Shown piece after piece: positions 10,188 to 64,000 of a stretch of 64,000 nt of DNA. The position numbers and the translations under genes are program-made. Source of the stretch: Botryllus schlosseri (lineage: Eukaryota); the NCBI GenBank assembly GCA_051294905.1, contig CM119372.1, positions 21,082,001-21,146,000 on the forward strand, in the 5' to 3' direction. A model generated the notes under the pieces. The model had not been told where the DNA came from and ran no database searches. It saw nothing but the letters and a program-made list of their open reading frames with translations. The first letter of the stretch is position 1; each line of letters opens with the position of its first letter.

Positions 10188-10284
10188 GAGATTGGCATTG
10201 GGACGCAACAATGCTGTCTGGCGAAACGAGAGAGTAACTCTCTCGTTTCGCCAGACAGCATTGTTGCGTCCCAATGCCAATCTC
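10188..10284. repeat. Perfect 97-bp palindrome (48-bp arms, 1-nt centre)
   Basis: 10188-10235 is the exact reverse complement of 10237-10284. Confidence 0.97.
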
Positions 10285-21397: not shown

Positions 21398-21726
21398 CTA
21401 TACTGTAGCCTACTCTTCATCATTGCATAAGCACTACAGAGTGGTGGGCTACCTTGACTATATATTTTGATTCCCATGGTAGTTGACTGGTAAGCTGATG
21501 TAACGAGTTTCGTTTTAATGTCTAATGCATTTGCTCTTGCGTATAGGACACAAATCGATCAATTTGCAAATTGGAGCAATTCCAACCTTAAATTTGCCTG
21601 TAAATTGGCTAGATTGTGTTCTCATGACTTTATAGCTGTGTCGAAAACTTCATCGCGAATATTTCAGCAATGCTGTTCACGGTGATGTTTCATGTGTCTA
21701 ACTACTTCTGATTTTTTGCATTTTCA

Positions 21727-22490
21727 GTGAAAGAGAATATTGCATTCCGTACAACGAAAGACGGAATGGTAGGATTCGTTGATCTTGGGGAGTCGAGGCC
21801 TGTAAATGATGATGAACCAGCTACACACGCTCTTCAAGTTTATGCCAGTGGCCTGGTAACGTCTGTTTCCAAACCCTTGGCATACTGCGCAACAAAGTCG
21901 GTGGCTTCATTTCGACTTTCGAGTAGGCCTATATTCAGGAAATGTGTCGGCATCTTGGAGGATTGTGGATTTCGGGTAGCTGCGTTTGTTGCTGATGGAC
22001 TCAGTGCAAATCGCAAGATGTTACAAGAGCGTACGCAACAACCTCTACGCCAGCCGCACTGGTGGTACGAAACTTCTCAACAAGGATGGTAAATTTATTC
22101 GATGGCGGCATTTTACGGCTGTTTGAACTGACGGAATTGAGATGCGGCAAATTGACGGATGCACATTTTCGTATGCAAAGCTTGGCAAAGATGCGGGAGA
22201 TTTTTGCAGCTCAGCTCAGCTTCTGCGAGCAGGAGAGGTGACGCTAAAGAAGCTTCTGCATGGTTTGCAGGTATTTACAAGTGGTTCGACATTATGAATA
22301 CATCAACCAAGTTCAGCTACAACGCCGACTTGAAGCCATATTGCAGTCCAGACGATTCACGCCTGGACTGGCTGGAAAATGATTTCTTGCCTAAAATGCG
22401 AAAATGGAGAGATTCTTGTGCTGAAGGAACAGCAACTTAGAAAACCAAAAAATTCTTGAGTCTCGATAACCATTTATGCATTTAATAACC
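21727..22490 (+). pseudogene. P-element/THAP9-like transposase remnant
   Basis: Motifs VKENI..GFVDLG..ATHALQVYASGL...KPLAY...ILEDCGFRVAAFVADGLSANRKM and KWFDIMN...KPY.SPDDSRLDWLENDFL..W. Interrupted by frameshifts and stops. Confidence 0.88.
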
Positions 22491-24461: not shown

Positions 24462-24752
24462 CAGTGGTTCTCAACCTTTTTTTAGACACGCCCCCCTTTA
24501 TGATAGTGAAAAATTTCGCGCCCCCCTTATCGTCATATCACAAAATCCAACCGGGATGCTAGCAACCCCAACAGACTGTTTGATGGCATGGAAGGTTATG
24601 ACTGTTGATGAGAGAATTCAAAAATATGAAATTCAGTCTCTATATAGAGAAACACTCGTGAACTGGAGGTAAATCGCGCAGAGCGCGAAAAAAAATTTCA
24701 GTTGACCGCTTCTTCGCGCCCCCCTTCAGATGCTTTCACGCCCCCCAGGTTG
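24462..24752. mobile_element. hAT-type MITE (CAGTGGTTCTCAACC family), right end eroded
   Basis: Same family as 53938-54213, which matches in inverted orientation over most of its length. Confidence 0.7.
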
Positions 24753-33481: not shown

Positions 33482-33632
33482 GTGGCAAGTCGACGATCCA
33501 AAATGCATGCCAAACACGAAACAATAAATATGTTGAAAATGCATTTTGTCTCTTAGCATTGTCAAAAGTCAAAAATCCGAACATATTTATTGTTTCGTGT
33601 TTGGCATGCATTTTGGATCGTCGACTTGCCAC
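33482..33632. repeat. Perfect 53-bp inverted repeat with 45-nt spacer
   Basis: 33482-33534 is the exact reverse complement of 33580-33632. Confidence 0.95.
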
Positions 33633-39238: not shown

Positions 39239-42097
39239 CAGACTGCGTAGGTCGAATTTCGCAGTTGCGGTTATATGCGATTGTGAATTGATAATGTGGT
39301 ATTGATCAAGGCTCGATTGCTCACCCGTACGTCGAGCACATATATTCTACCTCTCAATGCTGCTCGCTACGTTTGCAGATAATGGGAGTAAATCTAGCAA
39401 GCAAGCCGTTGCAAGCTATGGCGACGTAACCATGTGCTTTCGATCGAAGTTCGATTGATCGCTCGACGCAATACACCTCGAGGTCGGCGCACGTGGGTGT
39501 CAACTGACCAGCAATCTTTCGTTGATGATGACGCTGTAGCTACCCACAAATATCATGTTAAATGACGTCCCACGGTGTGCGTCGGCCGTTATTTAAAAGT
39601 CTAGTATTATTAGGACTTGGCGACGTTGGACAGCGTTGGCGCAAATTCCAGCCACCGCGAAATGTAGAACAGGTTCCTAGTGCACACCACTTGAATGCGA
39701 AACATCCATATTAAATGGGTAAAGCAAGGAAGTAGAGCGTACTGAAAAACATACCAATTTTGGTATCCGACTGTGCCAGCGTAATTGTCAGAGCGATGAT
39801 ATCACTTCTCTAGTACATTCCGAGATTCCCGCGCTGTAAGACGAGTACTTAGCGCTGAGTACACTTCCGGACCGGTATGATATTGCATGGCTTGATGAAT
39901 CGTTGGGTGCATTGCACAACAGCTGCGTTGTCGAATATTCCTTACCGATCTTGACCAGTCTAATTACAAGTCTATGTGCTACTAACCATTATCCTTATGC
40001 TGGATATCGCAGTATAAAAATGTGTCTCGTGATGGAATCCCGGGTGTATGGAGATTGGTAGCGCGTTATGTATCTTGCCGGAATATTTGAGCTGCGCTGG
40101 CATATTTGCTCACCTTATCAGTATGTAACAAAAGTAGGTATTCGTGTTGCGGAAAGACCAACAGCCAGCTTCGTAACGTGTATAGTATGCAATGTGTGTA
40201 TACGTTCGATGCAGTGATGAGATTATCGGCTTTGCCAACAATCTAGATAAATTCTGGTAGGTTTGCTCTTGGGAGATATCAAATCTTCAGTGTGTAATAA
40301 TGGCGTCTTGTGGTAAGCCTTAGCCCTGGTTTAGATTTCTGTAGTTCAGCGTCTCGCCGGTGCGGCTTACATCGGCTTTTGTGCTTTGTTATGCCTATAC
40401 TATACGCTGGCTTGGTCCTGCATTGCGATGTAGGCTAATTGTAAAGTATCTTGGCCCGTTTTACGGCGGGTGCACGAGCCGTTATAATCTCGGTTGAGAG
40501 CATGACCGCTAATATCGATGGAATATCCAATGCGCAGCGCTCCGGTTCAGAGAATGAATATGAATAATCTCAACTCTTCACTGTCGAGTATTGAATAGGA
40601 ACTGAAGCACATTTAAAACCGGTAGGCTTAGCTAAATTGCAACGTCCGTGGCATTTCGAATGAACTAGTTCTAAGTATAGGGACAACAATGCGTAATACG
40701 TATCTGCATTATCACCGTGCGTCCGACCGTAGAATATATGAGAATGTAACAGCCAAAGCGTTCGTTGCGTGGAATGTCGTTGCAGCGCGGTTTTTCGTTG
40801 GGAATTGTCTCGTCGTAGCTGGGAAATCATGTCATTACGCTTTTAGTGTATAATTAGTTGATTACCATACTTTTTACCGTATATATATTCCGTACTGATG
40901 TTTTACACTTAGGTTAAGCTCGTTATAATTCGTGTCGAGTCCTTATGGTATGTATGAATCGGGTGCTACTTGATGAAATTGAGGGGCGTCGCAGGGGGCG
41001 TGACTTTAAAGCTCTCGATGGCGTTTCGAAAATTCTCTTTCGTTAATTGCGAGCATTACGACTATGCATACCATAAACTTATGGATACAACCGTTACCTT
41101 CACCACACCGACCTAAGATCTTTTGAATTCCGTCTCTGAAAATGGTGCCGCTCACGGTAATGCGCGTGCCGCGTTGTTCGTGTCGAAGGGCGTTGTCAGG
41201 GGGTGTGGCCTACGGGAGTTCACGTATATCGCAGCGAAGTTACTCCCCTTCTAATTACGAGATGTATAGTATTCCGATGTGTGAACTACATCCAGTTCAA
41301 TTGTCACGTGTTTCGCCGATTGGCGAGTGTGTAATAGTTGAGTGTACCGAGAGTTTGCAGCAGCGCTTGAGCGAGCATGATGACAGTAATTTCGTCACTA
41401 AGTGAAATGAATGAACTGAGATTGAGGGTTACTCCCTGAGTTGTGAATAAAGCGGTAGTTTACATATTAGTGTAGGTGGCGCTTTCAACATGTCACACAC
41501 TTTCAGTTTAGGAATATCGTATGGCATATTACAGATTCCTGTAGGCCCATATTGAGATAATTCTGACTAATGTTGGCGTGAAGTATTGCTGAGAAGAAAA
41601 GATACAATTACAAAGGGTAGAATTGAGCCTCTGCCTCAGTATTGAAATTTTCTATAAATAGAATTCTATGTCACATGTTATTCTATTACTATCTGAAATA
41701 TTCGGTAGCCCTTTATTCTTTTTTATGTAGTCATTTGTGGTCAAGGATAGATCTTGCATCAAGAGTGTGATTAATCAAAAGATTTTTGAACAGTAGCATC
41801 CTGTTTTCCTGTTGCTATCGTAAAGATAGGCATAGGCCTGCTTTTTATTGTTGTTGCTCGTTATATGCAAGTTATTGCTGTTGTAAAACTTCATCAACTG
41901 GTTAACATGCGGTAATCTTAGAAGAACACATAGGCCTATAGCTTTCACTTTCTGTGTTTCCTCAAACTGTGATACATTCCTACTTTGATATATGAAACTA
42001 CATAAGATAGAGGGAGGGGATGAAAGATGAAAAAATTGGTCGTTCTGCTGTGCTAGTTCTGTAATCGTTACCATCCTGGTTTCTGAATAATTCAGTC

Positions 42098-42117
42098 TAC
42101 TAACTACTTGTTTTCAG
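42098..42117 (+). promoter_or_regulatory. Branch point TACTAAC and 3' splice acceptor TTGTTTTCAG upstream of the PTEN coding exon
   Basis: Consensus branch point 42098-42104 and AG at 42116-42117, 70 nt before the ATG. Confidence 0.75.
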
Positions 42118-42186
42118 ATCCATAGCCAAATTGTCAGTTATACATATTTTTCTTGTAACAATTGGAAATTGGGCCAAGGATCCCTG

Positions 42187-43416
42187 ATGTCAAGTACCAT
42201 AAAGTCTATGGTCAGTAAACAGAAAAGGCGGTACAAAGAAGATGGTTTTGATCTCGATTTAACATACATATGCCCAAACATCTTGGCCATGGGATTTCCC
42301 GCTGAGAAAGTGGAGGGACTATACAGAAACAACATTGACGATGTCGTAGAGTTTCTGGATTCGAAGCACGGAGAACATTACAAAGTGTACAATCTCTGCT
42401 CAGAGAGAACGTACGATCCAGATAAGTTCCAACAACGTGTCGCCGTGTTTCCGTTTGATGACCACAACCCTCCAAAGTTTGAATTAATCAAGCCGTTTTG
42501 TGTCGACATGGACAGCTGGCTGGGGAAGGATAAAAAGAACATAGCTGCTGTACACTGCAAAGCTGGCAAAGGCCGCACTGGAGTGATGATTTGTTGCTAC
42601 TTGCTGCATAGGAAAAAATTCACGAAAGCCAGCGAGGCTCTGAAATTTTACGGACAGGCCCGTACGATGAACGAAAAAGGTGTCACCATACCTTCCCAGA
42701 GACGATATGTAGAGTATTATTCCGAAATGATTTCGAAAAATCTTGTGTACAGACCAGAGACGCTACTACTACACAGCATACGTTTCGAAACGTTACCCTA
42801 TTTAGGTACCTTGAACCCGTTTTTTGTTATTAGTCAACTCAAGGTGAAGGTTTACACTTCACGCGCCAACATCGTTAACAAATCGATGGAAGGCTCGTTA
42901 ACCTTTGACCTTGTGAATCCCTTCCCGCTTTGCGGCGACATGAAAGTGGAGTTTTTTAACCGCAAACAGGTGGTCGGGAAGGACAAATTGTTCCATTTCT
43001 GGTTCAACACGTTTTTTGTAGCTGCCATGCGAAGCACGCCCGGAGCGTACGCAATAAGAGACGCCAGCTCTTATTATTCTTGCGGGCACTTGCCGACAGC
43101 GAAAAACATGCTCACTCTGACCATTCCCAAAAGCGAGCTCGACAAGGCGAACAAAGACCGGTCAAATAAAATTTTTTCTCCCAATTTCAAAGTCAGCCTG
43201 ATCTTCAGCCGGACGGATTCCAACGGCAAAGGCTCTAAAAGGGGGTCGAACCCAGCGCGGGCATCGCGAATCCCTCACAGTCAATCGACGCTTAGCGTCG
43301 ATGGTATATCCACGCACTCAGCGTCTGACCACGAGGAACTGACCGATGACGCGTCATTAAGTGATACTGACCCAGAGGACGAATGGGATCACGAAAGCGA
43401 CAGCACTGACCTGTAG
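42187..43416 (+). CDS. PTEN: Phosphatidylinositol 3,4,5-trisphosphate 3-phosphatase PTEN (409 aa, single coding exon)
   Basis: N-terminal [33 protein letters not shown] loop, catalytic [20 protein letters not shown]2 domain ([35 protein letters not shown]), acidic Ser/Thr tail ending in -TDL. The ATG at 42187 is preferred over the TTG at 42169. Confidence 0.98.
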
Positions 43417-43918: not shown

Positions 43919-44141
43919 CAGTGGTTTTCAACCTGAGCGCCGTGACCCCCGAGAAGGGTACTTTGCCTTTTTTTCTGGGGATCGTGAAAGAGCTGACTCT
44001 TAGTAATCTGCTTACCAAACGGACCATTAGTAGGTCAAAGTGAAAGTGCTGACAAATCAGCTAACCAAATTTAGAAGTTGGTCACGGATCATTTTCAAAT
44101 CGTAAATGGGGGGGGGGGCATGAAAAGGTTGGGAATCACTG
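43919..44141. mobile_element. Short hAT-type MITE downstream of PTEN
   Basis: Imperfect TIR CAGTGGTTTTCAACCT / AGGTTGGGAATCACTG. Flanks TGTTAAAG / TGTTATCC (partial match). Confidence 0.65.
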
Positions 44142-46210: not shown

Positions 46211-46354
46211 GAACCTTGAAACTTGGTTACAACCCCGGCATATTTGGTTGTATTAAGGCAGTGGTTCCCAACCGGGAGGGGGGAATTTTGAAATTTTTAG
46301 GGAGGAATCTGGCTTGGGCGTCGAATCGGAAGATACACTGGGTTCGAAATGTGT

Positions 46355-46379
46355 GATGAGATAGCGTAGTGGTAAACTC
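46355..46379 (+). mobile_element. tRNA-derived SINE, 5' piece (A box)
   Basis: TAGCGTAGTGG A box at 46362-46372. Continues at 63702 once the hAT insertion is removed. Confidence 0.7.
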
Positions 46380-46679
46380 TAGCGTTGGGATCCCGGGTTT
46401 TAAAGCAATCCCGATCCCGGGATTAATCACAATGTAATCCCGGGATTCGTAAACAGCATCTATCAAGGCTTACGTCGCGCCATATCTCATATTTTGGTAA
46501 TAAAGCAGTGTCACAAACTCGTCTGATTGTCTAAAACAATTCACAATTATGTGATAATAACAGTACGGCATAATAAGGAACTACACAATCCCTTCCGTCG
46601 TAATCTACGGATCGTAGCAGTGTAACTGCGTATCGGAGCGTTACAAATACGGTCCTGTGGAGAACTACTGGTCGGGATA

Positions 46680-46966
46680 GATGCGAATTTCGAAGATGTC
46701 AGTGCGAAGAGAAAATCCCATGTGTGGCAAAACTTTTTGTTTTGTAAATCTACAGAACAAGCCGAATGCAACTTGTGTCAAGACGTTTTGAAAGCTTCAG
46801 GGTCTATTACAAAGGGACTGAGTCCGTACGCATGAAAGTAATCATATCATGCATTACTCAATCTGACACGTCAAAGAAAGATCAGCCAAAAATGAAGACT
46901 AGGAAGATCGATTCCTTTCATAAATCGCATAAACCTCGCCTCGATGAAGTTCTTAACCAGTTAACT
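46680..46966 (+). pseudogene. hAT transposase remnant, N-terminal BED zinc finger
   Basis: KSHVWQNF..CKSTEQAECNLCQDVLKASGSITKGL (BED pattern S.VW..F...A.C..C...L...GS.T..L), then ...KPRLDEVLNQLT after a frameshift. Confidence 0.8.
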
Positions 46967-47019
46967 CAATGGTAGTAGTGTAGTATATCGCACAACCGGT
47001 GGCAGAGGTTCTTATGGGC

Positions 47020-47595
47020 GGGGTGGTGACTCGTATTGAAACCCGGGGTGGTGACTCGTACTTTCAGACCCCCCTTGTGGTGGTGAGTCGTAATGGGTTC
47101 TTATGGACGCGGTCGTGATTCGTACTTTCGGGTATAGGCTGCGGCGGTGACTCGTATTGAAAACCGTCGTGGTCGTGATTCGTACTTTTGGGTATAGGCT
47201 GTGGCGGTAACTCGTATTGAAAACTCGGGGTCGTGATTCGTACTTTTTGCTATAGGTGGTGGCGGTGATTCGCCTGTCATGTATTCTTACAGGGTCTCTA
47301 CTGATTCACCATGTGTTCTTACGGGCGTGTGTTCGTGAGTCGTATTTTCAGGTATAGGCTGCGTTGGTGATTCGTACTTTTGGGTATAGGCGGCAGCGGC
47401 ATACTAACGTGAAACTCGTGGTGGCATGCTAATGTTTTTAGGTATACGCGCGGCGACATGCTAACGACGATAATGTGTCTGTCATGTATTCTTACAGGGT
47501 CTCTGCTGATTCACCATGTGTTCTTATGGGTGCGGTCGTGAATCGTACTTTTAGGTATAGACATCTCTCGCATATCATACTTTCGGGTATAGGCA
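47020..47595. repeat. Subterminal motif array (GTGA(C/T)TCGTA(C/T)TT, GGGTATAGGC), mirrored at ~61365-61945
   Basis: More than ten iterations of GTGAYTCGTA, plus a ~50-bp duplication (47274-47322 / 47478-47527). Confidence 0.85.
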
Positions 47596-50500
47596 TCACT
47601 AAACAGGAAATTCACTAATCCGCAGTGCATTGTGCGATTTTGAAAACCAGATGTTGACGGTTGTATTTTGGATCTGTGTGACCCACTAAATACGTCCGTT
47701 TTGGAAATTCGGAGCGCGCACTATCGTATCGATTATTCCACTAATCCAGTCGGTGCTATTACATTCAGCAGTATTCAGTATTCAGCAGCGACACGAAAAG
47801 CAAGCAACAAATAACCGCGCTCGTAAATTAACACTTCAAAAAGTGTAAAATAGATTGCAAATCCCGCGATCGCTAACAAGATAATGTCTCGGACATAACC
47901 ATTTTTAGTGACTTGGTGTTAAAGACATACCGATCACTCACAAGGTAATATTTCGGTAATTAGTCTACCACAGAGCCGGCGTAGACGGTGATTCGAAAAC
48001 CAACAATTTGACACTTTCTGGTGGTCGCTATATGTTTTGACACTTCGAACAGTGGCTGACTTTAGTTGCGTGATAAGAATTATGAGAATATTCAATCAAT
48101 GTATCAATTTGCCAACTCGAAATGAAACTTACTACACAAACCAAGTTGATTCGTATCTGAATGTGTTAATTCGGTACAATTCTAATAGTTTTGAGAAATC
48201 TTTTCGTGATCTTTTGACTCGACCATAACCCGAATATTACTGACGCCGACTTTCAGCCACATCGAATTATTCGCACATTCCGCGCCGCTGTTTTCACACT
48301 TATAGAATCAATACCAACTATAATTCTACAAGAATCAAGAATCACAAGTATGTGCATTATACAGTTATTGTCTTTATCAACATGAAATCGAACTCTTAAT
48401 AAAAACACGCATGTTATCACTCGTCAACTCTATCATGAAAATCCTCGAGTCCTTATCATCAAAAATGTTATAGCGCGGCGTCGGAATCCATTCGTGGGAT
48501 GTACTAAAGGTAAATCCAGATAATCCAAAATGAAATATTTGGACTTTGACATAGTCTGAATTGAAATATATTGACAAACATGACTACCAACTTTGATCCA
48601 GTCACATTTCAAGATCATACTTTGAAACAATCCTTGAAACTTACAACTCTATTCGCGACTGAGTTTTCCTTTTATCAGTTTCAGTAAATACTATCGCGAT
48701 ATTTTAATGTGTTACTACACACAATAGAATCAATCAATGAAATAACACCTGTTGTAAATATTTCTAACTTGACAACCACTTGTGCATACCGCGATCGACT
48801 TGTGATGCGATGAGTTAAATCGGAATATTTCAATCTATTTGTCGAAACCTTGAACAAACTATCAGGTTATTTTTTGTTGCAATCGAGTGAACGGAAATAG
48901 TATTACGTCTCAACATTTCAACATCTTCCCATACACAAAAGAGTAAAATACAAAAAACCTTGTCAAGTCAATCCGTTTGTAACTTACCAAACCAAAACAA
49001 AAAGTATCCTTACGAAAAGTAGACAAGACTACGCAAGTAATCACTACAACCAACAAACATATCAAGTTCGGTTTTAGGTATATACCACCAATTCGTCTTA
49101 TTCGAATGTCAGCAACTCTTTACGGTCATAGTTACAACCACATAAACTAATTTACCCTGCCCACACGTCATGATCATTCCTGAAATCAACACAAACTCGA
49201 CCACTGACTTGAGTTAACCACAAAACTGCATCAAGTTTTTAATCCACTTGTAGCTGACAGATTATTCGAATACATCGATGGAGAATATTATTGAACTCGT
49301 CGGTATTGTTACTTCAACAAATTACACCGACTGCGAAAGTTAATATCGAATGGTAAGACTTGATCACATATTTGTTGAACACAGACATGACAAAGAACAT
49401 GATCGGGATTTTATAAACTATTACTTTTCCCATCTATCAATATCAGAATACAAGTCATCAAACTTTTTGTTAAATGTAACATAGCACTTTTGGAATCGGA
49501 TTCGTTATAGTCGTACAAATTGTATTAAACCCAACATCAAAACAAAAGGACTTTTTTAGTTCATTGAAATCAAATCATTCGTCTTCGACTTGTGCTTTTT
49601 TTAAATTGCCCGCGACAATTCGTTTCGAGTGAGTTGTAACCAAAGTCAAGATATCTTTGTGTCCACAGATATGGAAGATGAATATAGCTAACACAATCAC
49701 GAATCGACGTTTCAGAGTATTTCACAGATGTAATAAACTTGTTAGTGTCACCTATCTAAAAGTACGCACGCGTTCGATTTCCATACCGACTGTTGCGATG
49801 TTTAGGATTCACTTACAATAACCACGGGTGAGGATTTAACATCAACGTCGTTACTGGTGGTATTCACAACAGAGAATCGAAACATTACACAGTGTGAAAA
49901 TATATCTTTGATATCAAAGCATTATCCCAAGTACACGATTAATAGTCAACTCCGTTCACACTTTCTATAGAACGTGCTAAATGTAAAATATCACGAGGTT
50001 GCACTCTAAGACTTTGATCATTACAAAAGTAAATTGGAATATGTTTGCTGGATGCATTCAATTCAGCTAGAAATGTCTAGTGCACAACAATCGTAATATC
50101 AAGGAAGTACTTGCTATCACTAAACGTGTTTTGTATCGTTGTTCATTTGTAGTATTGATTGTTTTTGAACCCTAAAATAATAATTCCCGACATGAAACCA
50201 AGCCGCTGAAAGTCGTTACCATAACAAAGAAACAATTTGTACGATGTTTGGCAAATGTGTCCTATAGTTAGGTGTACTAGAATTATTTGTGTAACACATA
50301 CACCGACAATGCAATCGAATTTTTTTCCGTTGTCATTCGCTAAAGTAAATGTCATCACAATACTCTGTCACTAAAAGACGTTACTCGGACGTGCTTGAAT
50401 TCTAGGCATAGTTCTGATTTACCCAACACAAGACCCAAGGACAACCCTAGTTTCAGTCGAACACAGATATCCAAAATATCGCACACTTCGCGCAAACACC

Positions 50501-52077
50501 CGATACAAAATATTACTTGTGTTGTTGCGGTATCATCTTCACAATATCACACAATACGAATGATGGTTATATGTAACATGCGACCGACTTGAATCACACC
50601 CACCTGAAGGAAGAGGATTTACTCAATCTTTACAAAATGGATATTGACCAACATCACATCGCCGGATTGTATCTGTTTTGCTGGATACGAGTTATGTTAG
50701 TTTAACAGTAAACAAATTTCACCCTCTTGGATTATGAACTCAATGCGTTAGCAGTCATTCAATATTTTGTTTGTGTCAACTAGTTACTTGGTATGTTACT
50801 CCACAACTCTTACAAAAGTACGAAGGATATTAACATCACACTAAGTAATTAACTTTACTCGATATTCTCGCATTACGAAACTAAAGAATGGTTGGTTAGA
50901 CTCTATAAACTGTTTCGATATCACAAGACCTTTATTGTCTGAATGGGTGTTCACGTATCTTAATAATCAAATAGTTCAACACAGAACTAGTACTAACAGA
51001 AACATCAGAGTTGTTTACACAAAAGTTTGTATGTGTACAGTATGCGAATACCATGTGTAAGTCTAGCACAATTGCGGTATCCATCCGAGTTTAGTTAGTT
51101 AACACAAATTTATTACAACGGACCCACGTAAACTTTCGTGAAAGAAAAGCATACTCACTTCCGGATGGTTCTATCAATGCCATAACAATAAATCAGCTAC
51201 TCCAACAAAAGAGTACATATGTTTTCTAGTCGCGGTCCCTAAATCATACACACGAAACAATCTACTTTTGCTAACGAAAAGTGCTGAGTTATCACATAAT
51301 CACCCTCACAACAAAACAGCTAGTAGATATTATCATTCAAAATATTCCTAACCCTTTACACACCAGTGACAAATCATACAACGAATACACACCAGTGACA
51401 AATCATACAACGAATATGTTTTGTGGGTCGAATTGTTGTTCAGTGTCAAGTCTACCTGTTGAAACTTACATTAAAACAAGTCTACCTGTTGAAACTTACA
51501 TTAAAACAACACAGTCACAATTCAATTAAAACAACGAATCTATTTTCATTTCCTCACAAACAGAAAAATAAATTTTCTTTCCCCAACACATACTTGTAAC
51601 CAATCGCTTTCATTAAACACACAACTTCATAAAAGTATTTACTTTCTCCAACATAGACATTCCGATGTAGTCAAGAAATATTTTCATTAATCAAAATCTT
51701 CGACTTCTGTTTACGGTGTTAGTGTGTGCATGTCATACACGTGGGGCCCGTATTAAAATGGACACGACACAACTGAATGTAAGGAGATAGAAGTCTATCG
51801 CACAGATTTACATGCGGTCTTCGCTACGGTTTCAAAAAAAAAACGAATCATCTCTTTTGCATTGATCTAGACCGAGCAAGTTAGTTAATGGCCATGATTG
51901 TGTTTGTCATATGCGAATGATAGGGTTACTGTCAAATCTACATACAACAACCTTCTGGCACTCATAATAGCAATTTCATTCTCTCCCTTTGTAATTGTAG
52001 ACTCACGACAAGTATATTGTACAACTCGACAGCTACGTTTAACAACACCAACGACACTAAACATACGATACCTACCC

Positions 52078-52640
52078 AAGTAAAATTACCATTTTCACCT
52101 GGAGGTCAGTCGTTACCTGAGTAAAAACACCATTATTCTTTGGAGATTTAATCAGAGTAACAAAACATTTTCACTTGGGGGTCTATCGTTTCCAAGAGTA
52201 ACAAACCCCCTTTCCTTTGGAAATCTATTTTTCCCTGGGTAACAAACCTTTTTCACTTGCAAATATATTTCCCCCCCCGGGTAACAAACCTTTTTTCGCT
52301 TGGAAATATATTTTTTCCTTGAGCAACAGATCATTTTTACTTGGAAATATATTTTTTCCTTGAGCAACAGACCATTTTTACTTGGAAATATATTTTTCCC
52401 AGAGCAACAAACCATTTCACTCGGCGGGTCGTCGTTTACCCATTGTAACAAACCATTTTCACTTGGAAAAATACTTTTACCTAGAGTAACTAATCATTTT
52501 CTTTTGGAAATATATTTTCTCCCTGGGTAACAAATCCTTTTCGCTTGGAAAACTGTCATTTACCTGAGTACCAATACCGTTTTCACTTGGAAATCTATCT
52601 TTTCCCTAGGTAATAATACCATTTTCGTTTTGAAAACTGA
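52078..52640. repeat. ~41-bp degenerate tandem array, ~14 units (left arm)
   Basis: Consensus AACAAACCATTTTCACTTGGAAATATATTTTTCCCTGGGT recurring every 40-42 nt. Confidence 0.9.
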
Positions 52641-53399
52641 CAACCACACCGGACAATTTGATATTTTTGTATATTGTTTCAAGAGACGGTGACAAAATAT
52701 GCACCAACAACGACTCCATTCATTTGTGTAATCAAATATTCAGTCGCTCTGATGCATCCCATCAAAATCATTGGTTACTCGCATGCAATAACAATGTGCT
52801 GTTGTACATCGATATGTATGTTTTGGAAATTTGACAATAGGTTTCGATATGTAAGTGATGTTCGGGTTCGTGCTTTGGATTTTCCAGAGTCAAAATGTCT
52901 GAATAAAACACCTCCTCGACTTTGGTACACGGATAATGGCGTTCGGAAAGCGGATGAATTTATGTTCTCCATCGCCCTAACAACTCCGGGTTATTTGCGA
53001 GTTTCCTCGGGTCTGTTTACTATATTGTGTCTTTACTGGTCAATACATGTCGCTCCAGTCAGCTGAAACCGGATCACTAATCTGAGAAAGTGTGTTGACC
53101 GGATCCGGATATTCACTCATGAACCAACGACCAATATTCAAGTAAACATGTTACAGCCCGTGTTTTGTCTCCATGGAAAATACCAATGCATACACCATCA
53201 CACCAAGTACGTCACGATTGTTCACAAGTATTCGCGTAAACGAGGTGTACATACAATGTGTCGGTGTACAAACATCATGGAAAACAAATTCATGTTCTCA
53301 AGTATCATCATGCGACGACTCTGCACATTCAATGTGGGCATAGATGACACACGACATGATACAATGGACAGTGCATTATGCATACCGATATATTCTCAG

Positions 53400-53750
53400 T
53401 CAAATATGCGAACCATGTACTATCATGCATCCCGATTTTCGCTGAATATCCACAACACCAACAAATCTGTACATTTCTTTTCCCTCAACCTTGACGATAG
53501 AGTTGTCCTCCCAATGTACCAATCGAGTGTATGGTTCATCAGGTGTAAAATCCAAATCAAACGTCACCAAGGTATCGTTTTTCATTTTCAATATTTCCAC
53601 CACTGCGTCTTGTCTGTGTCGTAAAACCACGGTGTGAGGCCAGAGGAATCTATGGACAGTTACGCGTAGTCCATCCATGTCCGTGTCAGGTAGCGACAAC
53701 GTTTTCTCAATGGGCTGTGTGGGTACAACGTTTCAATAGGTAGCTGGATC
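53400..53750 (-). pseudogene. Decayed coding sequence of unknown family in the fold-back spacer
   Basis: The ~100-codon open stretch (SLPDTDMDGLRVTVHRFLWPH...) has protein-like composition. Upstream it is broken by a stop codon and the hAT insertion. Confidence 0.35.
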
Positions 53751-53758
53751 AACTAGAC

Positions 53759-54853
53759 CAGGGGTGGGCAAACTACGGCCCGCGGGCCGCATGCGGCCCG
53801 CCACACCGTTCTGTGCGGCCCGCGAGAGTCTAAAGAAACTTATTTTAAATATTGATAAAATTCGCACTAAAAATCGAATTAATGAAGGGACTTCATTAAA
53901 CTTTTTCTTAGTATATTTCACCATGATAATTCGAAGACAGTGGTTCTAAAACTGGGGTACGCCCTCCCTCCACTGAAAATTTTTTTCGCGCTTCGCGCGA
54001 TTCTCATTCACGTCATGATTATTGCTCTGTATTTAGTCTCAATTTCATATTTAAAAATTCCTCATCCACATTCGTAACCATCCGTGCCATCAAACTATTT
54101 GTTAGGTTGCTAGCACCCTATAGTTGCGTTTTGTTATATGACGATAAGGTTGGCCCAAAATTTTTCACCATCACAAGGGGGGGAGCGTGTCTCAAAAAAT
54201 TTGAAAGCCACTGTTATGAGGTAAATACTTCCTTACTTTAGGAATAATTTCTGGCGCGACAGCCCGATCTCAAGGCGCACGCAGTTTGAAAGGTTTCAAC
54301 TATATCACAGAAATCCTAAACGAGATTGACATTATTCGGATGACGAGTGGGATTTCATATTGGCCACTTCATTGCAGTTTTAATTATTTCAGTGATGTGC
54401 TTATAGAAACGATTTGCGCGTGTCTTAGGTAGATTCGTTCTCTGTATGCGTAGAATTGGGGTGTTAATATTTTATCTACACATCGCAGATGCGTGTTTGA
54501 AGCTAACATGGTTATGATGTGTCCTGGAACTGAGCCAAAAGTGGAATTAGTAATTCTATGAACGGATCACTGCTCATAGATTTAAATTGCAATCCTGTTC
54601 TAAGAATCGGGACAAACGGCTTTCATCTCTATAATTTTGACAAATTGGTTATTGAGGTCGACCAGCCTCTGAAATCTCGCCACTATGTTTCTGACGTGTG
54701 TACGATATCATCAAAGCAATGTGTTTTTTTTTAAATAGGAACATATAGAATCTCCATGTCCTCGCCATATAATCTCAGTTTTATACAATGCGGCCCGCGA
54801 ATGGATTTAGATGTTGAATGCGGCCCGCGAGCTCAAAAGTTTGCCCACCCCTG
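53759..54853. mobile_element. hAT-type MITE (CAGGGGTGGGCAAACT family) in the fold-back spacer
   Basis: Perfect TIR CAGGGGTGGGCAAACT, GCGGCCCGC subterminal motifs, perfect 8-bp TSD AACTAGAC (53751-53758 and 54854-54861). Confidence 0.95.
53938..54213. mobile_element. Small MITE nested in the 53759-54853 element
   Basis: Ends CAGTGGTTCT...AAAGCCACTG. Homologous to 24462-24752. TSD not recognisable. Confidence 0.65.
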
Positions 54854-55416
54854 AACTAGACCAAAAGTTTCCAACCGCGATTTATGTTGACCTGTCGAGT
54901 TACGAGATAGCACCCTCTTGCGGTGTGATTAACACGAAATCAGCCTTCAGCTCGCAGAGACACACCCTGGATTACATTATCTAATCGTAATCGAACTCTA
55001 GATTCACACACACACAGAGTCCCTGTTTACGATTTCAATCCGGAATCACTGCTCACGATGTTTAGCTGGAGTCGTTATGTGGGAGTAGCGACATCCGACA
55101 TATTCATCGCGTGAAAGATTGATAACGATGGTAATCGCCAAATACATGAAACCAGGTGAAGTACTGCGGTCTCAGCGAAAAAGTTAGCAGGTTATGACCA
55201 ACGATACGCAGGGGTTGAGTGAGTTACGCAACCCGATTATGTCGAGGTCTGGATCACGATGCAAGTCTACATGAGAATCCGAACAATCTTGCAAAATCAA
55301 GGTGTGAACCCGTGAAAGGATTGTACTCGTGTGAGATTAATTTTTCACAAGTTGGGTGGAGGCGGTTCATACTAAGATCGTGTTACGTCCAATTACGGCT
55401 GCTTGTCTGTCCCCAA

Positions 55417-58400
55417 GTCATCTATGCCCACATTGAATGTACAGAGTCGTCGCATGATGATACTTGAGAACATGAATTTGTTTTCCATGATGTTTGTACA
55501 CCGACACATTGTATGTACACCTCGTTTACGCGAATACTTGTGAACAATCGTGACGTACTTGGTGTGATGGTGTATGCATTGGTATTTTCCATGGAGACAA
55601 AACACGGGCTGTAACATGTTTACTTGAATATTGGTCGTTGGTTCATGAGTGAATATCCGGATCCGGTCAACACACTTTCTCAGATTAGTGATCCGGTTTC
55701 AGCTGACTGGAGCGACATGTATTGACCAGTAAAGACACAATATAGTAAACAGACCCGAGGAAACTCGCAAATAACCCGGAGTTGTTAGGGCGATGGAGAA
55801 CATAAATTCATCCGCTTTCCGAACGCCATTATCCGTGTACCAAAGTCGAGGAGGTGTTTTATTCAGACATTTTGACTCTGGAAAATCCAAAGCACGAACC
55901 CGAACATCACTTACATATCGAAACCTATTGTCAAATTTCCAAAACATACATATCGATGTACAACAGCACATTGTTATTGCATGCGAGTAACCAATGATTT
56001 TGATGGGATGCATCAGAGCGACTGAATATTTGATTACACAAATGAATGGAGTCGTTGTTGGTGCATATTTTGTCACCGTCTCTTGTAACAATATACAAAA
56101 ATATCAAATTGTCCGGTGTGGTTGTCAGTTTTCAAAACGAAAATGGTATTATTACCTAGGGAAAAGATAGATTTCCAAGTGAAAACGGTATTGGTACTCA
56201 GGTAAATGACAGTTTTCCAAGCGAAAAGGATTTGTTACCCAGGGAGAAAATATATTTCCAAAAGAAAATGATTAGTTACTCTAGGTAAAAGTATTTTTCC
56301 AAGTGAAAATGGTTTGTTAGTATGGGTAAACGCCAGATCTCCAAAGGAAAATGATATTTTTACTCAGGTAAACGGTGGATCGTAAAGTGAAAATGGTTTG
56401 TTGCTCAGGGAAAAAGGTTTGTTACCCGGGGAAAAAATATCTTTCCAAGTGAAAAAGGTTTGTTACCCAGGGAAAAGATAGATTTCCAAGTGAAAACGGT
56501 ATTGGTACTCAGGTAAACGACAGATTTCCAAGTGAAAATGTATTGTTACAATGGGTAAACGCCGGATCTCTAAAGGAAAATGATATTTTTACTCAGGTAA
56601 ACGACGACCCGCCGCGTGAAATGGTTTGTTCCTCTGGGAAAAAATATATTTCCAAGTAAAAATGGTCTGTTGCTCAAGGAAAAAATATATTTCCAAGTAA
56701 AAATGATCTGTTGCTCAAGGAAAAAATATATTTCCAAGCGAAAAAAGGTTTGTTACCCAGGGAAAAATAGATTTCCAAAGGAAAGGGGGTTTGTTACTCT
56801 TGGAAACGATAGACCCCCAAGTGAAAATGTTTTGTTACTCTGATTAAACGATAAATCTCCAAAGAATAATGGTGTTTTTACTCAGGTAACGACTGACCTC
56901 CAGGTGAAAATGGTAATTTTACTTGGGTAGGTATCGTATGTTTAGTGTCGTTGGTGTTGTTAAACGTAGCTGTCGAGTTGTACAATATACTTGTCGTGAG
57001 TCTACAATTACAAAGGGAGAGAATGAAATTGCTATTATGAGTGCCAGAAGGTTGTTGTATGTAGATTTGACAGTAACCCTATCATTCGCATATGACAAAC
57101 ACAATCATGGCCATTAACTAACTTGCTCGGTCTAGATCAATGCAAAAGAGATGATTCGTTTTTTTTTGAAACCGTAGCGAAGACCGCATGTAAATCTGTG
57201 CGATAGACTTCTATCTCCTTACATTCAGTTGTGTCGTGTCCATTTTAATACGGGCCCCACGTGTATGACATGCACACACTAACACCGTAAACAGAAGTCG
57301 AAGATTTTGATTAATAAAAATATTTCTTGACTACATCGGAATGTCTATGTTGGAGAAAGTAAATACTTTTATGAAGTTGTGTGTTTAATGAAAGCGATTG
57401 GTTACAAGTATGTGTTGGGGAAAGAAAATTTATTTTTCTGTTTGTGAGGAAATGAAAATAGATTCGTGGTTTTAATTGAATTGTGACTGTGTTGTTTTAA
57501 TGTAAGTTTCAACAGGTAGACTTGACACTGAACAACAATTCGACCCACAAAACATATTCGTTGTATGATTTGTCACTGGTGTGTAAAGGGTTAGGAATAT
57601 TTTGAATGATAATATCTACTAGCTGTTTTGTTGTGAGGGTGATTATGTGATAACTCAGCACTTTTCGTTAGCAAAAGTAGATTGTTTCGTGTGTATGATT
57701 TAGGGACCGCGACTAGAAAACATATATACTCTTTTGTTGGAGTAGCTGATTTATTGTTATGGCATTGATAGAACCATCCGGAAGTGAGTATGCTTTTCTT
57801 TCACGAAAGTTTACGTGGGTCCGTTGTAATAAATTTGTGTTAACTAACTAAACTCGGATGGATACCGCAATTGTGCTAGACTTACACATGGTATTCGCAT
57901 ACTGTACACATACAAACTTTTGTGTAAACAACTCTGATGTTTCTGTTAGTACTAGTTCTGTGTTGAACTATTTGATTATTAAGATACATGAACACCCATT
58001 CAGACAATAAAGGTCTTGTGATATCGAAACAGTTTATAGAGTCTAACCAACCATTCTTTAGTTTCGTAATGCGAGAATATCGAGTAAAGTTAATTACTTA
58101 GTGTGATGTTAATATCCTTCGTACTTTTGTAAGAGTTGTGGAGTAACATACCAAGTAACTAGTTGACACAAACAAAATATTGAATGACTGCTAACGCATT
58201 GAGTTCATAATCCATGAGGGTGAAATTTGTTTACTGTTAAACTAACATAACTCGTATCCAGCAAAACAGATACAATCCGGCGATGTGATGTTGGTCAATA
58301 TCCATTTTGTAAAGATTGAGTAAATCCTCTTCCGTCAGGTGGGTGTGATTCAAGTCGGTCGCATGTTACACATAACCATCATTCGTATTGTGTGATATTG

Positions 58401-61400
58401 TGAAGATGATACCGCAACAACACAACAAGTAATATTTTGTATCGGGTGTTTGCGCGAAGGGTGCGATATTTTGGATATCTGTGTTCGACTGAAACTAGGG
58501 TTGTCCTTGGGTCTTGTGTTGGGTAAATCAGAACTATGCCTAGAATTCAAGCACGTCCGAGTAACGTCTTTTAGTGACAGAGTATTGTGATGACATTTAC
58601 TTTAGCGAATGACAACGGAAAAAAATTCGATTGCATTGTCGGTGTATGTTTTACACAAATAATTCTAGTACACCTAACTATAGGACACATTTGCCAAACA
58701 TCGTACAAATTGTTTCTTTGTTATGGTAACGACTTTCAGCGGCTTGGTTTCATGTCGGGAATTATTATTTTAGGGTTCAAAAACAATCAATACTACAAAT
58801 GAACAACGATACAAAACACGTTTAGTGATAGCAAGTACTTCCTTGATATTACGATTGTTGTGCACTAGACATTTCTAGCTGAATTGAATGCATCCAGCAA
58901 ACATATTCCAATTTACTTTTGTAATGATCAAAGTCTTAGAGTGCAACCTCGTGATATTTTACATTTAGCACGTTCTATAGAAAGTGTGAACGGAGTTGAC
59001 TATTAATCGTGTACTTGGGATAATGCTTTGATATCAAAGATATATTTTCACAAAGATATATTTTCACACTGTGTAATGTTTCGATTCTCTGTTGTGAATA
59101 CCACCAGTAACGACGTTGATGTTAAATCCTCACCCGTGGTTATTGTAAGTGAATCCTAAACATCGCAACAGTCGGTATGGAAATCGAACGCGTGCGATCT
59201 TTTAGATAGGTGACACTAACAAGTTTATTACATCTGTGAAATACTCTGAAACGTCGATTCGTGATTGTGTTAGCTATATTCATCTTCCATATCTGTGGAC
59301 ACAAAGATATCTTGACTTTGGTTACAACTCACTCGAAACGAATTGTCGCGGGCAATCTAAAAAAGCACAAGTCGAAGACGAATGATTTGATTTCAATGAA
59401 CTAAAAAAGTCCTTTTGTTTTGATGTTGGGTTTAATACAATTTGTACGACTATAACGAATCCGATTCCAAAAGTGCTATGTTACATTTAACAAAAAGTTT
59501 GATGACTTGTATTCTGATATTGATAGATGGGAAAAGTAATAGTTTATAAAATCCCGATCATGTTCTTTGTCATGTCTGTGTTCAACAAATATGTGATCAA
59601 GTCTTACCATTCGATATTAACTTTCGCAGTCGGTGTAATTTGTTGAAGTAACAATACCGACGAGTTCAATAATATTCTCCATCGATGTATTCGAATAATC
59701 TGTCAGCTACAAGTGGATTAAAAACTTGATGCAGTTTTGTGGTTAACTCAAGTCAGTGGTCGAGTTTGTGTTGATTTCAGGAATGATCATGACGTGTGGG
59801 CAGGGTAAATTAGTTTATGTGGTTGTAACTATGACCGTAAAGAGTTGCTGACATTCGAATAAGACGAATTGGTGGTATATACCTAAAACCGAACTTGATA
59901 TGTTTGTTGGTTGTAGTGATTACTTGCGTAGTCTTGTCTACTTTTCGTAAGGATACTTTTTGTTTTGGTTTGGTAAGTTACAAACGGATTGACTTGACAA
60001 GGTTTTTTGTATTTTACTCTTTTGTGTATGGGAAGATGTTGAAATGTTGAGACGTAATACTATTTCCGTTCACTCGATTGCAACAAAAAATAACCTGATA
60101 GTTTGTTCAAGGTTTCGACAAATAGATTGAAATATTCCGATTTAACTCATCGCGTCACAAGTCGATCGCGGTATGCACAAGTAGTGGTTGTCAAGTTAGA
60201 AATATTTACAACAGGTGTTATTTCATTGATTGATTCTATTGTGTGTAGTAACACATTAAAATATCGCGATAGTATTTACTGAAACTGATAAACGGAAAAC
60301 TCAGTCGCGAATAGAGTTGTAAGTTTCAAGGATTGTTTCAAAGTATGATCTTGAAATGTGACTGGATCAAAGTTGGTAGTCATGTTTGTCAATATATTTC
60401 AATTCAGACTATGTCAAAGTCCAAATATTTCATTTTAGATTATCTGGATTTACCTTTAGTACATCCCACGAATGGATTCCGACGCCGCGCTATAACATTT
60501 TTGATGATAAGGACTCGAGGATTTTCATGATAGAATTGACGAGTGATAACATGCGTGTTTTTGTTAAGAGTTCGATTTCATGTTGATAAAGACAATAACT
60601 GTATAATGCACATACTTGTGATTCTTGATTCTTGTAGAATTATAGTTGGTATTGATTCTATAAGTGTGAAAACAGCGGCGCGGAATGTGCGAATAATTCG
60701 ATGTGGCTGAAAGTCGGCGTCAGTAATATTCGGGTTATGGTCGAGTCAAAAGATCACGAAAAGATTTCTCAAAATTATTAGAATTGTACCGAATTAACAC
60801 ATTCAGATACGAATCAACTTGGTTTGTGTAGTAAGTTTCATTTCGAGTTGGCAAATTGATACATTGATTGAATATTCTCATAATTCTTATCACGCAACTA
60901 AAGTCAGCCACTGTTCGAAGTGTCAAAACATATAGCGACCACCAGAAAGTGTCAAATTGTTGGTTTTCGAATCACCGTCTACGCCGGCTCTGTGGTAAAC
61001 TAATTACCGAAATATTACCTTGTGAGTGATCGGTATGTCTTTAACACCTAGTCACTAAAAATGGTTATGTCCGAGACATTATCTTGTTAGCGATCGCGGG
61101 ATTTGCAATCTATTTTACACTTTTTGAAGTGTTAATTTACGAGCGCGGTTATTTGTTGCTTGCTTTTCGTGTCGCTGCTGAATACTGAATACTGCTGAAT
61201 GTAATAGCACCGACTGGATTAGTGGAATAATCGATACGATAGTGCGCGCTCCGAATTTCCAAAACGGACGTATTTAGTGGGTCACACAGATCCAAAATAC
61301 AACCGTCAACATCTGGTTTTCAAAATCGCACAATGCACTGCGGATTAGTGAATTTCCTGTTTAGTGATGCCTATACCCGAAAGTATGATATGCGAGAGAT

Positions 61401-61987
61401 GTCTATACCTAAAAGTACGATTCACGACCGCACCCATAAGAACACATGGTGAATCAGCAGAGACCCTGTAAGAATACATGACAGACACATTATCGTCGTT
61501 AGCATGTCGCTGCGCGTATACCTAAAAACATTAGCATGCCACCACGAGTTTCACGTTAGTATGCCGCTGCCGCCTATACCCAAAAGTACGAATCACCAAC
61601 GCAGCCTATACCTGAAAATACGACTCACGAACACACGCCCGTAAGAACACATGGTGAATCAGTAGAGACCCTGTAAGAATACATGACAGGCGAATCACCG
61701 CCACCACCTATAGCAAAAAGTACGAATCACGACCCCGAGTTTTCAATACGAGTTACCGCCACAGCCTATACCCAAAAGTACGAATCACGACCACGAGTTT
61801 TCAATACGAGTCACCGCCGCAGCCTATACCCGAAAGTACGAATCACGACCGCGTCCATAAGAACCCATTACGACTCACCACCACAAGGGGGGTCTGAAAG
61901 TACGAGTCACCACCCCGGGTTTCAATACGAGTCACCACCCCGCCCATAAGAACCCCTGCCACCGGTTGTGCGATCTACTACACTACT
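55417..61987 (-). repeat. Right arm of giant inverted repeat (6571 bp)
   Basis: Begins GTCATCTATGCCCACATTG at 55417, matching ...GGGCATAGATGAC ending at 53348. Confidence 0.98.
56125..56925. repeat. ~41-bp degenerate tandem array, ~19-20 units (right arm)
   Basis: Inverted copy of 52078-52640 with extra units at ~56320-56600. Confidence 0.9.
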
Positions 61988-63251
61988 AGTGGTTCCCAAC
62001 CTTTTTCGACTCATTGCCCCCTTTTCAAACTCCACACCGATCATCGCCCCCCAAATATTGGGAACACAAACATGGGCATGCAGAATGAAATCATCGGCGA
62101 GTTGACTAAGAAAAAGGGTCAACTTTTCGGCTCGACCTCGAAGTTACACTTTTCCAGCTAAATTTTGGTGAGTTGACTAACAAAAAGGTGTTGACTAACA
62201 AAAAGGTGATTTCTCCGACTTTATTCCCAAAGGACCGTAACTTCACTTCGTCAGCCCCCCCCCCCAATACGTTGGTCTTGACCCCCTCTAGAGAACGATA
62301 AAGCAAACTTCTGTACCCCTCAGACCCAACTCCCCGGATACCTCGTTACCGCTACTTCTCAGCACAAATTGTTGGACTCTTTAGTTAGCCGGCTTAATTC
62401 GCGCGAAGCGCGAAAAATTTCTATTATTCATGACTGAATCGGTCAATATGATCGGAAATTGCATAAATATTGCTGTCAATTTTTTATCCTCTCTGCTCAT
62501 GTATTCAGATTTACCGGTAAAGCTGAGTGAGGTGTCTTGGATAATGTAGGGCCCGTAAATAATAATTGAACATATTCGGGCGGACCCGTGGGTATAATGA
62601 CTTCGTTACGTTATGACTTTTCGTGGCCTGTCTGCTATGTCAAAAGATATTCAAATCGCCCATACGTACTAAACTAAAAGACGCACACGATTTCAAATTG
62701 GTATTTCTGCACTGGCAACTACTTTTTCTCGGCGAGATGGCATTTTTTGTGGGGTTCTGATTGGACAGAACAGGAAGATTTGGCGCCAGCCATTTAGGCG
62801 CCTTTGGACAATTAAATATATATGTATATCGTATATATATCGAAGTCGGTCAGCATAAAGGCAGTCCTTTTCCGCCAAGGATTTCTCGTTCTGGCACACT
62901 TCTCGGAGTCGCATGTTACATGGCCTGAAACTTCATATGTCTTGGTGCGTCATGGTGTGATAATGGCTGACGCCGAGATGCCCATTTCTGCACCTCATGC
63001 GTATTATTTCTTGGAGGAAGGGTATCCTATAAGCAAGAAAAATGTGACCACGAAATGGCGTGCAGCGCGAAAAGTTTTTGAAAAAGTGGCAATTGGGGGA
63101 TTGGGTGTGGCAGTTACGGTCATGGACGCCAATATAGCCATTTCAACGCGCCATCGCCCCCCTATCGCCCCCTTCGTCCGTTTTCGACCCCTTGGCTATT
63201 TTCGACCCCTGGACCGACAAATCGCCCACGTTGGGAACCACTGAGTTAACT

Positions 63252-63555
63252 GTTGCGAACGGGCTAACATTTAATCAAATTGACCAAAGTGAATGAATTC
63301 GCCTGGCTTTCGAGGCTGACGGCTATGATCGGCCAAGATATGTCACAAACGTGTTTGGGACTTGGTCATCGAGCACAGTAAAAAATCCACAAGTGTGTAG
63401 AAAAAGAGCTTATGGCAGTGAAACGGAATAATGGACGTTTTTCGATCACATTGGACGAATCAACTTCTACACGCAACAGGCGGTGAATGAATTTAAACGC
63501 TCATTATCCGGGTGGCTTTCGATCGCTGGGTTTCATTCGTATTCACGGGAGCATG
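63252..63555 (+). pseudogene. hAT transposase remnant, continuation to the first catalytic Asp region
   Basis: VANGLTFNQIDQSE*IRLAFEADGY..., then GRFSITLDESTSTRNRR*MNLNAH...LGFIRIHGSM after a frameshift. Confidence 0.8.
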
Positions 63556-63701
63556 TTTTTGCGTCAATATTACAACGAATTAATGTTGTTTGTGTAGCTT
63601 GTTTCTGTATTTTACTACTTTGCTAATCCCGGGATTGAGAAGCGAAAATCCCGATCCCGGGATTTCAAATTTGATCCCGAAGTCCCAACCCTAGTAAACT
63701 C

Positions 63702-63872
63702 CACAACTGCAACACCAATGGGTTCGAGTCCGACCGATGTCGACTCAAGAATTCCTACCCAAGTGTCAGGGGTTTATCTAGGCTCCTCCTGGCCATCTCA
63801 TCCGTGTTAGCGGTGTCTTATGAATGCCTAGAAGTGGTCCGTGCTATAATTCGGCCGCTACGGAATAAAAAA
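63702..63872 (+). mobile_element. tRNA-derived SINE, 3' piece (B box, body, A-rich tail)
   Basis: GGTTCGAGTCC B box at 63721-63731 and AATAAAAAA tail at 63864-63872. Confidence 0.7.
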
Positions 63873-64000
63873 TGGAGGAAATTGGCATGGTGTAAATGAC
63901 CATAGTATTCAACACACAACATAAACACCTCAAAACAAACAAATTGGGTTCACAAGGTTTTTAGATTTATGGTAGAACTGTTATGTAGAGACTAATTCTT

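Follow-up and report, generated by a model that had tools for sequence, protein, structure and literature searches.

We analyzed a 64,000-nucleotide window of the Botryllus schlosseri genome (assembly GCA_051294905.1, contig CM119372.1, positions 21,082,001 to 21,146,000 of the forward strand; coordinates below count from the first base of this window). At 46355-63872, the window holds a stack of mobile elements inserted into one another, which we number as levels 1 to 6 from the outside in: a repeat resembling a short interspersed element (SINE), an internally deleted hAT transposon, a non-autonomous hAT-type element, a giant palindrome, another non-autonomous hAT-type element, and a decayed relic resembling a MITE (miniature inverted-repeat transposable element). 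An earlier note made from the letters of this region had described such a nest, and a direct check of the sequence located all layer coordinates and target-site duplications (TSDs) that it had named. The stack of insertions is real but ordinary for a repeat-rich animal genome. The real object of interest at this locus is level 4, a high-copy element consisting almost entirely of inverted repeat, with the ends of a Maverick/Polinton transposon, a virus-like kind of element.

Four junctions carry a TSD, as the earlier note had claimed: levels 2, 3, and 5 are flanked by exact 8-bp repeats, level 4 is flanked by a 6-bp repeat with one mismatch (AATGGT/AGTGGT, 5/6), and level 6 has none. For a fixed place, chance alone would produce an exact 8-mer pair with a probability of 2e-5, five or more matches in six with 0.006, and four or more in eight with 0.13. 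Peeled of its inner layers, level 1 measures 196 bp, in agreement with the claim that 17.5 kb collapse to a SINE of about 200 bp. Levels 2, 3, and 4 measure 1,029, 1,257, and 13,911 bp, and level 5 without level 6 measures 819 bp. The nesting of the six layers stands, whereas six separate insertion events are not shown, because level 6 lacks a TSD and its terminal inverted repeats (TIRs) have decayed. For comparison with other copies, contigs from public sequencing runs were aligned to 53300-64000 (10.7 kb, with the left arm of level 4 and the left junctions lying outside) in 4 of 24 listed runs (X1, possibly from the source sample itself, X7, X16, and X17). All 30 depth bins of this interval were covered in all four runs, with 228,439 contigs aligned in X1. 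Contig depth is here summed over contigs, and we rejected it as a measure of copy number. Among the 15 contig joints listed out of 667, none bypassed level 5 or level 6.

Level 4 is composed of a left arm of 6,375 bp (46974-53348, + strand), a loop of 2,068 bp (53349-55416; 965 bp without level 5), and a right arm of 6,571 bp (55417-61987, − strand) that is the reverse complement of the left. Without level 5, the element is 13.9 kb long, and the two arms make up 93% of it. They are 99.6% identical, differing by 27 substitutions in 6,269 columns (0.43%) and by 13 insertions or deletions (indels), several of which are changes in the number of repeat units. The left arm contains 32/60-bp subrepeats at 47111-47391 and a 41-bp array at 52157-52626. 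The largest difference between the arms lies at 56320-56548, where the right arm has about 270 bp of extra 41-bp array (insertions of 229 and 42 bp). The element begins with AGTAGT at 46974 and ends with ACTACT at 61987, and its 18-base terminal motif occurs at only these two places in the window. When TSD lengths of 3 to 9 bp were tried at three positions of the ends, only lengths of 3, 4, and 6 bp fit with at most one mismatch. The earlier note had called level 4 a fold-back element; the Maverick/Polinton-type ends and the lack of a 9-bp TSD lead us to give up that classification.

The right arm and loop are deeply covered by many variant contigs in all four runs, and level 4 therefore belongs to a high-copy family, this evidence concerning the right arm and loop rather than whole palindromes. 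One contig from X7, a run from another study, begins exactly at the arm/loop border (55417). At 58178-58392, 213 bp are bypassed by contigs of X16, X7, and X1, so the family includes arm length variants. Between 0.26 and 0.33 of the arm's words also occur in seawater metagenomes and in organisms B and D, which we did not use as evidence. A six-frame Pfam search of the left arm and loop (12 translations) detected none of the Polinton core genes (PolB, integrase, ATPase, protease, or capsid), the best match being a domain of unknown function with an E value of 0.072. Because no core gene was recognized by Pfam, level 4 is not an autonomous Polinton.

The loop contains one intact open reading frame (ORF) of 92 codons (53678-53400, − strand), to which no function is assigned. 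All four candidate homologs that were retrieved are of similar length (90-91 amino acids) and 68-91% identical to the loop protein, and 48 of the 92 alignment columns are invariant; the called-gene database from which they came favors open frames. Each homolog lies on a contig of 922-1,075 bp, near the 965-bp length of the loop, which lends slight support to the idea that these contigs are loops severed by collapsed arms elsewhere, a length of about 1 kb being common for such contigs. Level 5 has its left TSD 72 bp upstream of this ORF's start codon, and the insertion may cut the loop gene from its promoter. The loop protein has no Pfam match, and its best matches among PHROGs and PDB sequences have E values of 0.076 and 0.69. 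Searches of the ESM Atlas gave a best value of 0.86 or nothing. Foldseek matches (best E value, 0.015) were disregarded given the quality of the AlphaFold model (predicted local distance difference test score, 43). A further candidate relative, P0003 (E value, 1e-5), matched over 22 residues of a repeat protein and was treated as a chance hit.

The two arms of level 4 do not evolve independently. The right arm accounts for 19 of the 40 variant positions listed out of 688; three of these had no left-arm partner and were dropped, which left 16 testable sites. At 13 of these 16 sites, the window carries the same letter on both arms while most of the family depth carries another; at the other three, the left arm has the majority letter. 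One of the 13 shared sites sits in the 41-bp array, with the other letter at only 58% in X1. At seven of them, the other letter accounts for at least 98.9% of the depth in X1, X16, and X17. That both arms mutated independently at all seven is so improbable that it can be neglected, and copying from arm to arm is therefore needed: the arms appear to have been copied from one another.

The outermost layer, level 1, is split into a 5′ part (46355-46379, + strand), whose last 8 bases form the left TSD of level 2, and a 3′ part (63694-63872, + strand), where the right TSD of level 2 is followed by sequence that includes a 6-base A run. The motifs TAGCGTAGTGG (46362-46372) and GGTTCGAGTCC (63721-63731), which we take to be A and B boxes from their fit to the box consensus, are 26 nucleotides apart once level 2 is removed, a spacing that suits a promoter. 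A diverged relative at 12880-13130 (− strand) has an identical B box and aligns to the 3′ part with a score of 71 (maximum of 44 in 500 shuffles). Its similarity to the 5′ part is not above chance, with 417 of 1,000 shuffles equally good. Relaxed ARAGORN detected no tRNA-like head, BLAST gave no match to the rejoined SINE elsewhere in the window, and no tRNA or Rfam match was obtained anywhere in the window. At 46259-46272, 96 bp to the left of the SINE, is a hAT-type terminus with the same 14 bases as the level 3 TIR. The window contains no right end to match it, and this terminus may be a sign of a seventh, outer layer.

Level 2 (46380-63693) is a deleted hAT element seated in this SINE-like repeat, with GTAAACTC on both sides (8/8) and TIRs matching at 10 of 11 positions. 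Its 5′ part (46380-46966, + strand) encodes a BED finger and transposase residues 2-100, and its last bases are the left TSD of level 3; the BED finger was matched by Pfam with an E value of 0.0011, which does not reach the cut-off. The 3′ part (63244-63693, + strand) opens with the right TSD of level 3, followed by transposase residues 101-201, the last residues of the protein, and the right TIR. A search with the 3′ remnant yielded three intact hAT transposases among 61 candidates, and no longer relative of the BED-finger piece appeared among nine candidates. P0007, an intact hAT transposase of 624 amino acids with a BED finger (PF02892) and a hAT dimerization domain (PF05699), is 67-86% identical to the main pieces of level 2. 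Because residues 202-615 of this protein are absent, we regard level 2 as an internal-deletion derivative; it also contains stops and frameshifts.

The same protein provides an independent view of the junction between levels 2 and 3. P0007 residues 53-100 map to 46823-46966, residues from 101 onward map from 63252, and at the rejoined site residues 53-129 form a single gapless alignment (68.8% identity; E value, 3e-30). In addition, one X16 contig aligns from exactly 63244 with 92 other letters ahead of it and may represent a level 2 copy without level 3. The expectation that rejoined junctions run contiguously into other copies was thus borne out between levels 2 and 3 and, by the X17 contigs described below, between levels 3 and 4, while the diverged SINE relative lent the SINE junction no independent support.

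Level 3 (46967-63243) is a non-autonomous hAT-type element lying within the dead transposase gene of level 2. It is flanked on both sides by AGTTAACT, and its TIRs match at 14 of 14 positions after removal of level 4. Its left TIR is split: the first 7 bases (46967-46973, + strand), which hold the left 6-bp TSD of level 4 (46968-46973), are separated from the body (61988-63243, + strand; 1,257 bp in total), which starts with the right TSD of level 4. In X17, 64 contigs link position 61988 to varied flanks (agreement, 0.43) with a consensus ending in GTCTAGAC plus C. Since this flank consensus is a hAT target followed by an intact level 3 start, level 4 split the left TIR of level 3 after its seventh base, and other copies support this junction as well.

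Level 5 (53759-54853) is a hAT-type, non-autonomous element inserted in the loop of level 4, with perfect TIRs (16/16) and AACTAGAC on both sides. At 54853, 165 X1 contigs and 54 X17 contigs enter varied flanks with a TCTAGA consensus, showing that this is the end of the element and that copies of it are spread over many sites. In X7, one contig reaches through the loop to 53760 and has 13 more letters; it may represent a loop without level 5, which would give the same picture because the two bases after either TSD of level 5 are identical. Level 6 (53938-54213) is a decayed, hAT-type, MITE-like relic with TIRs matching at 11 of 15 positions. Its flanks, TTCGAAGA and TTATGAGG, agree at 4 of 8 positions, as chance alone would give with a probability of 0.13. 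It is 78% identical over 248 columns to 24462-24705 (− strand), and it is probably an old relic that was brought in by level 5. This relative has a clean TIR on one side only, at 24462, its other end being absent from the vicinity.

These layers yield a relative chronology for levels 1 to 4 that is firm in part. The SINE was present before level 2 arrived, because retrotransposition is impossible for a SINE whose boxes are 17 kb apart. The entry of level 3 into level 2 preceded the entry of level 4 into level 3, because level 4 destroys the left TIR of level 3. The TIRs of level 2 are near-intact, and level 2 could therefore have carried inner layers in with it, unlikely as a jump of 17 kb is. 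Levels 5 and 6 could have been acquired before level 4 arrived here, a fair caveat of the earlier note. A partial order is thus secure, and the full order that had been proposed is not.

Several other features occur in the window outside the nest. An uninterrupted, apparently intronless frame of 441 codons at 42091-43416 (+ strand) encodes a PTEN-like phosphatase with a PTEN_C2 match (E value, 5e-29) and the motif HCKAGKGRT. Just downstream, at 43919, is a hAT-type terminus of the kind found in levels 3 and 6. A P-element/THAP-type transposase fragment lies at 21712-22089 (+ strand; TNP-like RNase H N, E value 4e-16). Tandem arrays were identified at 15119-16106 (unit of about 150 bp, 6.6 copies) and 26544-27037 (unit of 155-171 bp, 2-3 copies), and self-complementary stretches at 10188-10284 (97 bp, 99%) and 33482-33632 (about 150 bp, 84%).

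Level 4 is therefore a high-copy, 13.9-kb element that is 93% inverted repeat, has Maverick-type ends, and was inserted as a unit with a TSD. The commonest terminal motif of Mavericks is 5′-(AGT)2//(ACT)2-3′, with (AG)3//(CT)3 as an alternative, and a vertebrate survey gives a 6-bp TSD, lengths between 12.7 and 24.6 kb, and TIRs ranging from 46 to 1,447 bp (PMC8097293); further background on Polintons is found in PMC6431247 and PMC2836005. Level 4 resembles these elements in its (AGT)2..(ACT)2 ends, its TIRs, its length, and a reading of its TSD as 6 bp. We conclude that level 4 is probably a non-autonomous, helper-dependent Polinton/Maverick derivative, with arms that are re-templated at replication, by conversion, or by both. 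Such an element would keep the terminal origin and integrase sites at both ends, and the protein-primed polymerase and integrase of a helper Polinton would copy and insert it in trans. The palindrome would have originated in the copying of one end back onto itself. During strand-displacement replication, the displaced strand could snap into a 6-kb panhandle, or the nascent strand could fold back, and self-templating of either kind would regenerate one arm from the other. Gene conversion between the arms in the chromosome after insertion may add to this. A panhandle intermediate in Polinton replication has been proposed as a model (PMC4046053).

Several observations weigh against this conclusion. 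The link to Polintons consists of a 6-base motif and one imperfect TSD, and ends shifted by one base (46973-61988) give TAG..CTA with a 4-bp TSD, ATGG/GTGG, that fits equally well. The arms are more than four times as long as the longest Maverick TIR in the vertebrate survey (1,447 bp; PMC8097293). No helper Polinton came to light in scans of viral and metagenome contigs with the terminal motif, which gave 0 loci in either set, or with the loop-protein alignment, for which none of 74 viral and 223 metagenome pattern matches was confirmed as a locus. The loop ORF appears to be under weak selection, as 28 of 62 changes are conservative compared with 32-36% expected (P = 0.06 at 35%). The variant positions were a tool-chosen 40 of 688, and summed contig depth is not a copy number. 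The depth carrying the window copy's letter is of the same order at the seven shared sites (78-1,054) as at the three single-arm sites (24-215). Finally, the outer 39 columns, including the TSD, hold 3 mismatches where 0.17 are expected (P = 0.0007, post hoc), an excess that hints at chromosomal conversion sparing the very ends over re-templating at replication.

This last observation bears on an explanation that we regard as unlikely, in which the arms of a Polinton-ended element are alike only through gene conversion after insertion and the palindrome tells us nothing about Polinton replication. In its favor, mismatches crowd toward the outer end, which adjoins unpaired flanks: two fall in the first 33 columns and one in the TSD. 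Conversion also predicts rare letters common to both arms. However, substitutions and indels are still scattered along the arms, the TSDs of levels 2 and 3, identical at 16 of 16 positions, give no sign of great age, and the excess at the ends amounts to three events noted post hoc.

We find it similarly improbable that level 4 belongs to another superfamily (AcademX-like or Foldback/Mutator-like, for example) as a giant non-autonomous element moved by cut-and-paste. The tandem subrepeats of its arms do resemble those in the TIRs of Foldback elements, and AcademX ends read TAG..CTA, as do those of level 4 when shifted by one base. The 4-bp TSD of that reading would suit AcademX, which makes 3- or 4-bp TSDs (PMC10045372). 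Both ends of level 4 nevertheless correspond exactly to the published Maverick motif (PMC8097293), no TSD of 7-9 bp exists, and cut-and-paste transposition alone does not place rare letters on both arms.

It is very improbable that the palindrome formed once, here, when an inserted fragment of a Polinton end was duplicated locally by folding back. A single local copying event would also give rare letters on both arms, but level 3 picks up again in register on either side of the palindrome, with a short TSD, the pattern that one integration leaves. Moreover, a contig in a run from another study (X7) breaks at the arm/loop border, and diverged loop ORFs occur on loop-sized contigs. An assembly or chimeric-read artifact is hardly credible, even though fold-back chimeras are a known artifact of long reads and none of the listed contigs extends across the whole stretch, because the flanks do not mirror each other, each of three outer layers picks up again in register, and 27 sites and 13 indels, repeat-unit numbers among them, distinguish the arms.

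Returning to a helper-dependent Polinton derivative, we tentatively raise a narrower possibility, itself rather doubtful, that level 4 represents a distinct class of Polinton satellite. Such a satellite would be a replicon of helper size that is palindromic over nearly its whole length, amplified by the protein-primed polymerase and integrated by the integrase of its helper, perhaps packaged, with one arm regenerated from the other in each round and a small functional gene in the loop. If so, it would correspond to snap-back defective genomes, but in integrated and heritable form, and would record in the genome how Polintons replicate. Long, near-perfect palindromes at high copy may also affect genome stability and assembly. 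The element is bracketed in time, having landed in the TIR of level 3, which itself already interrupted a hAT gene. Level 4 matters because panhandle replication of Polintons is a proposed model (PMC4046053), and a high-copy family with 6-kb arms evolving in concert offers a test, from sequence alone, of re-templating versus later gene conversion.

Searches of the full-text literature turned up no account of a Polinton family that is poor in genes and almost entirely palindromic, with subscription papers and Repbase reports mostly outside this search; the supplements of PMC8097293 may list elements with long TIRs. Level 4 differs from Mavericks in being 93% palindrome and in having no Pfam match to a polymerase, integrase, ATPase, protease, or capsid protein. 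Butterfly polintons are similar to level 4 in having enlarged inverted repeats, and polB-less polinton-related insertions are similar in being mobile derivatives without polymerase or with transposable-element cargo (bioRxiv 10.1101/2025.02.07.637071). In contrast, the TIRs of butterfly polintons, of about 2 kb, carry hexon and protease genes (same source), whereas the arms of level 4 are three times longer and contain no recognizable gene, the small ORF being in the loop. Polinton TIR remnants in Caenorhabditis elegans likewise show that terminal sequence can persist without the full gene set, but these are 744-bp TIRs and rearranged fragments (bioRxiv 10.1101/2024.01.15.575659), as opposed to a 14-kb palindrome inserted as a unit.

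Levels 2, 3, and 5 share the 8-bp TSDs and short TIRs of the hAT superfamily, and other copies of levels 3 and 5 share its TCTAGA-centered target; levels 3 and 5 (1.1-1.3 kb) are long for MITEs, and level 6 departs from the superfamily in lacking an 8-bp TSD. Foldback (FB-type) elements have long TIRs with tandem subrepeats and a TSD of about 9 bp. The long inverted arms of level 4, with their 32/60-bp and 41-bp tandem arrays, are similar, but its ends are of the Maverick type, it has no 9-bp TSD, and its arms are mostly non-repetitive. Palindromic or snap-back derivatives are known for protein-primed linear replicons, namely adenovirus, yeast killer plasmids, and phi29. Like level 4, these have one terminus doubled around a small unique center, and they depend on a helper, as level 4 probably does. 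Unlike level 4, which is integrated with a TSD and present at high copy, they are extrachromosomal or laboratory products.

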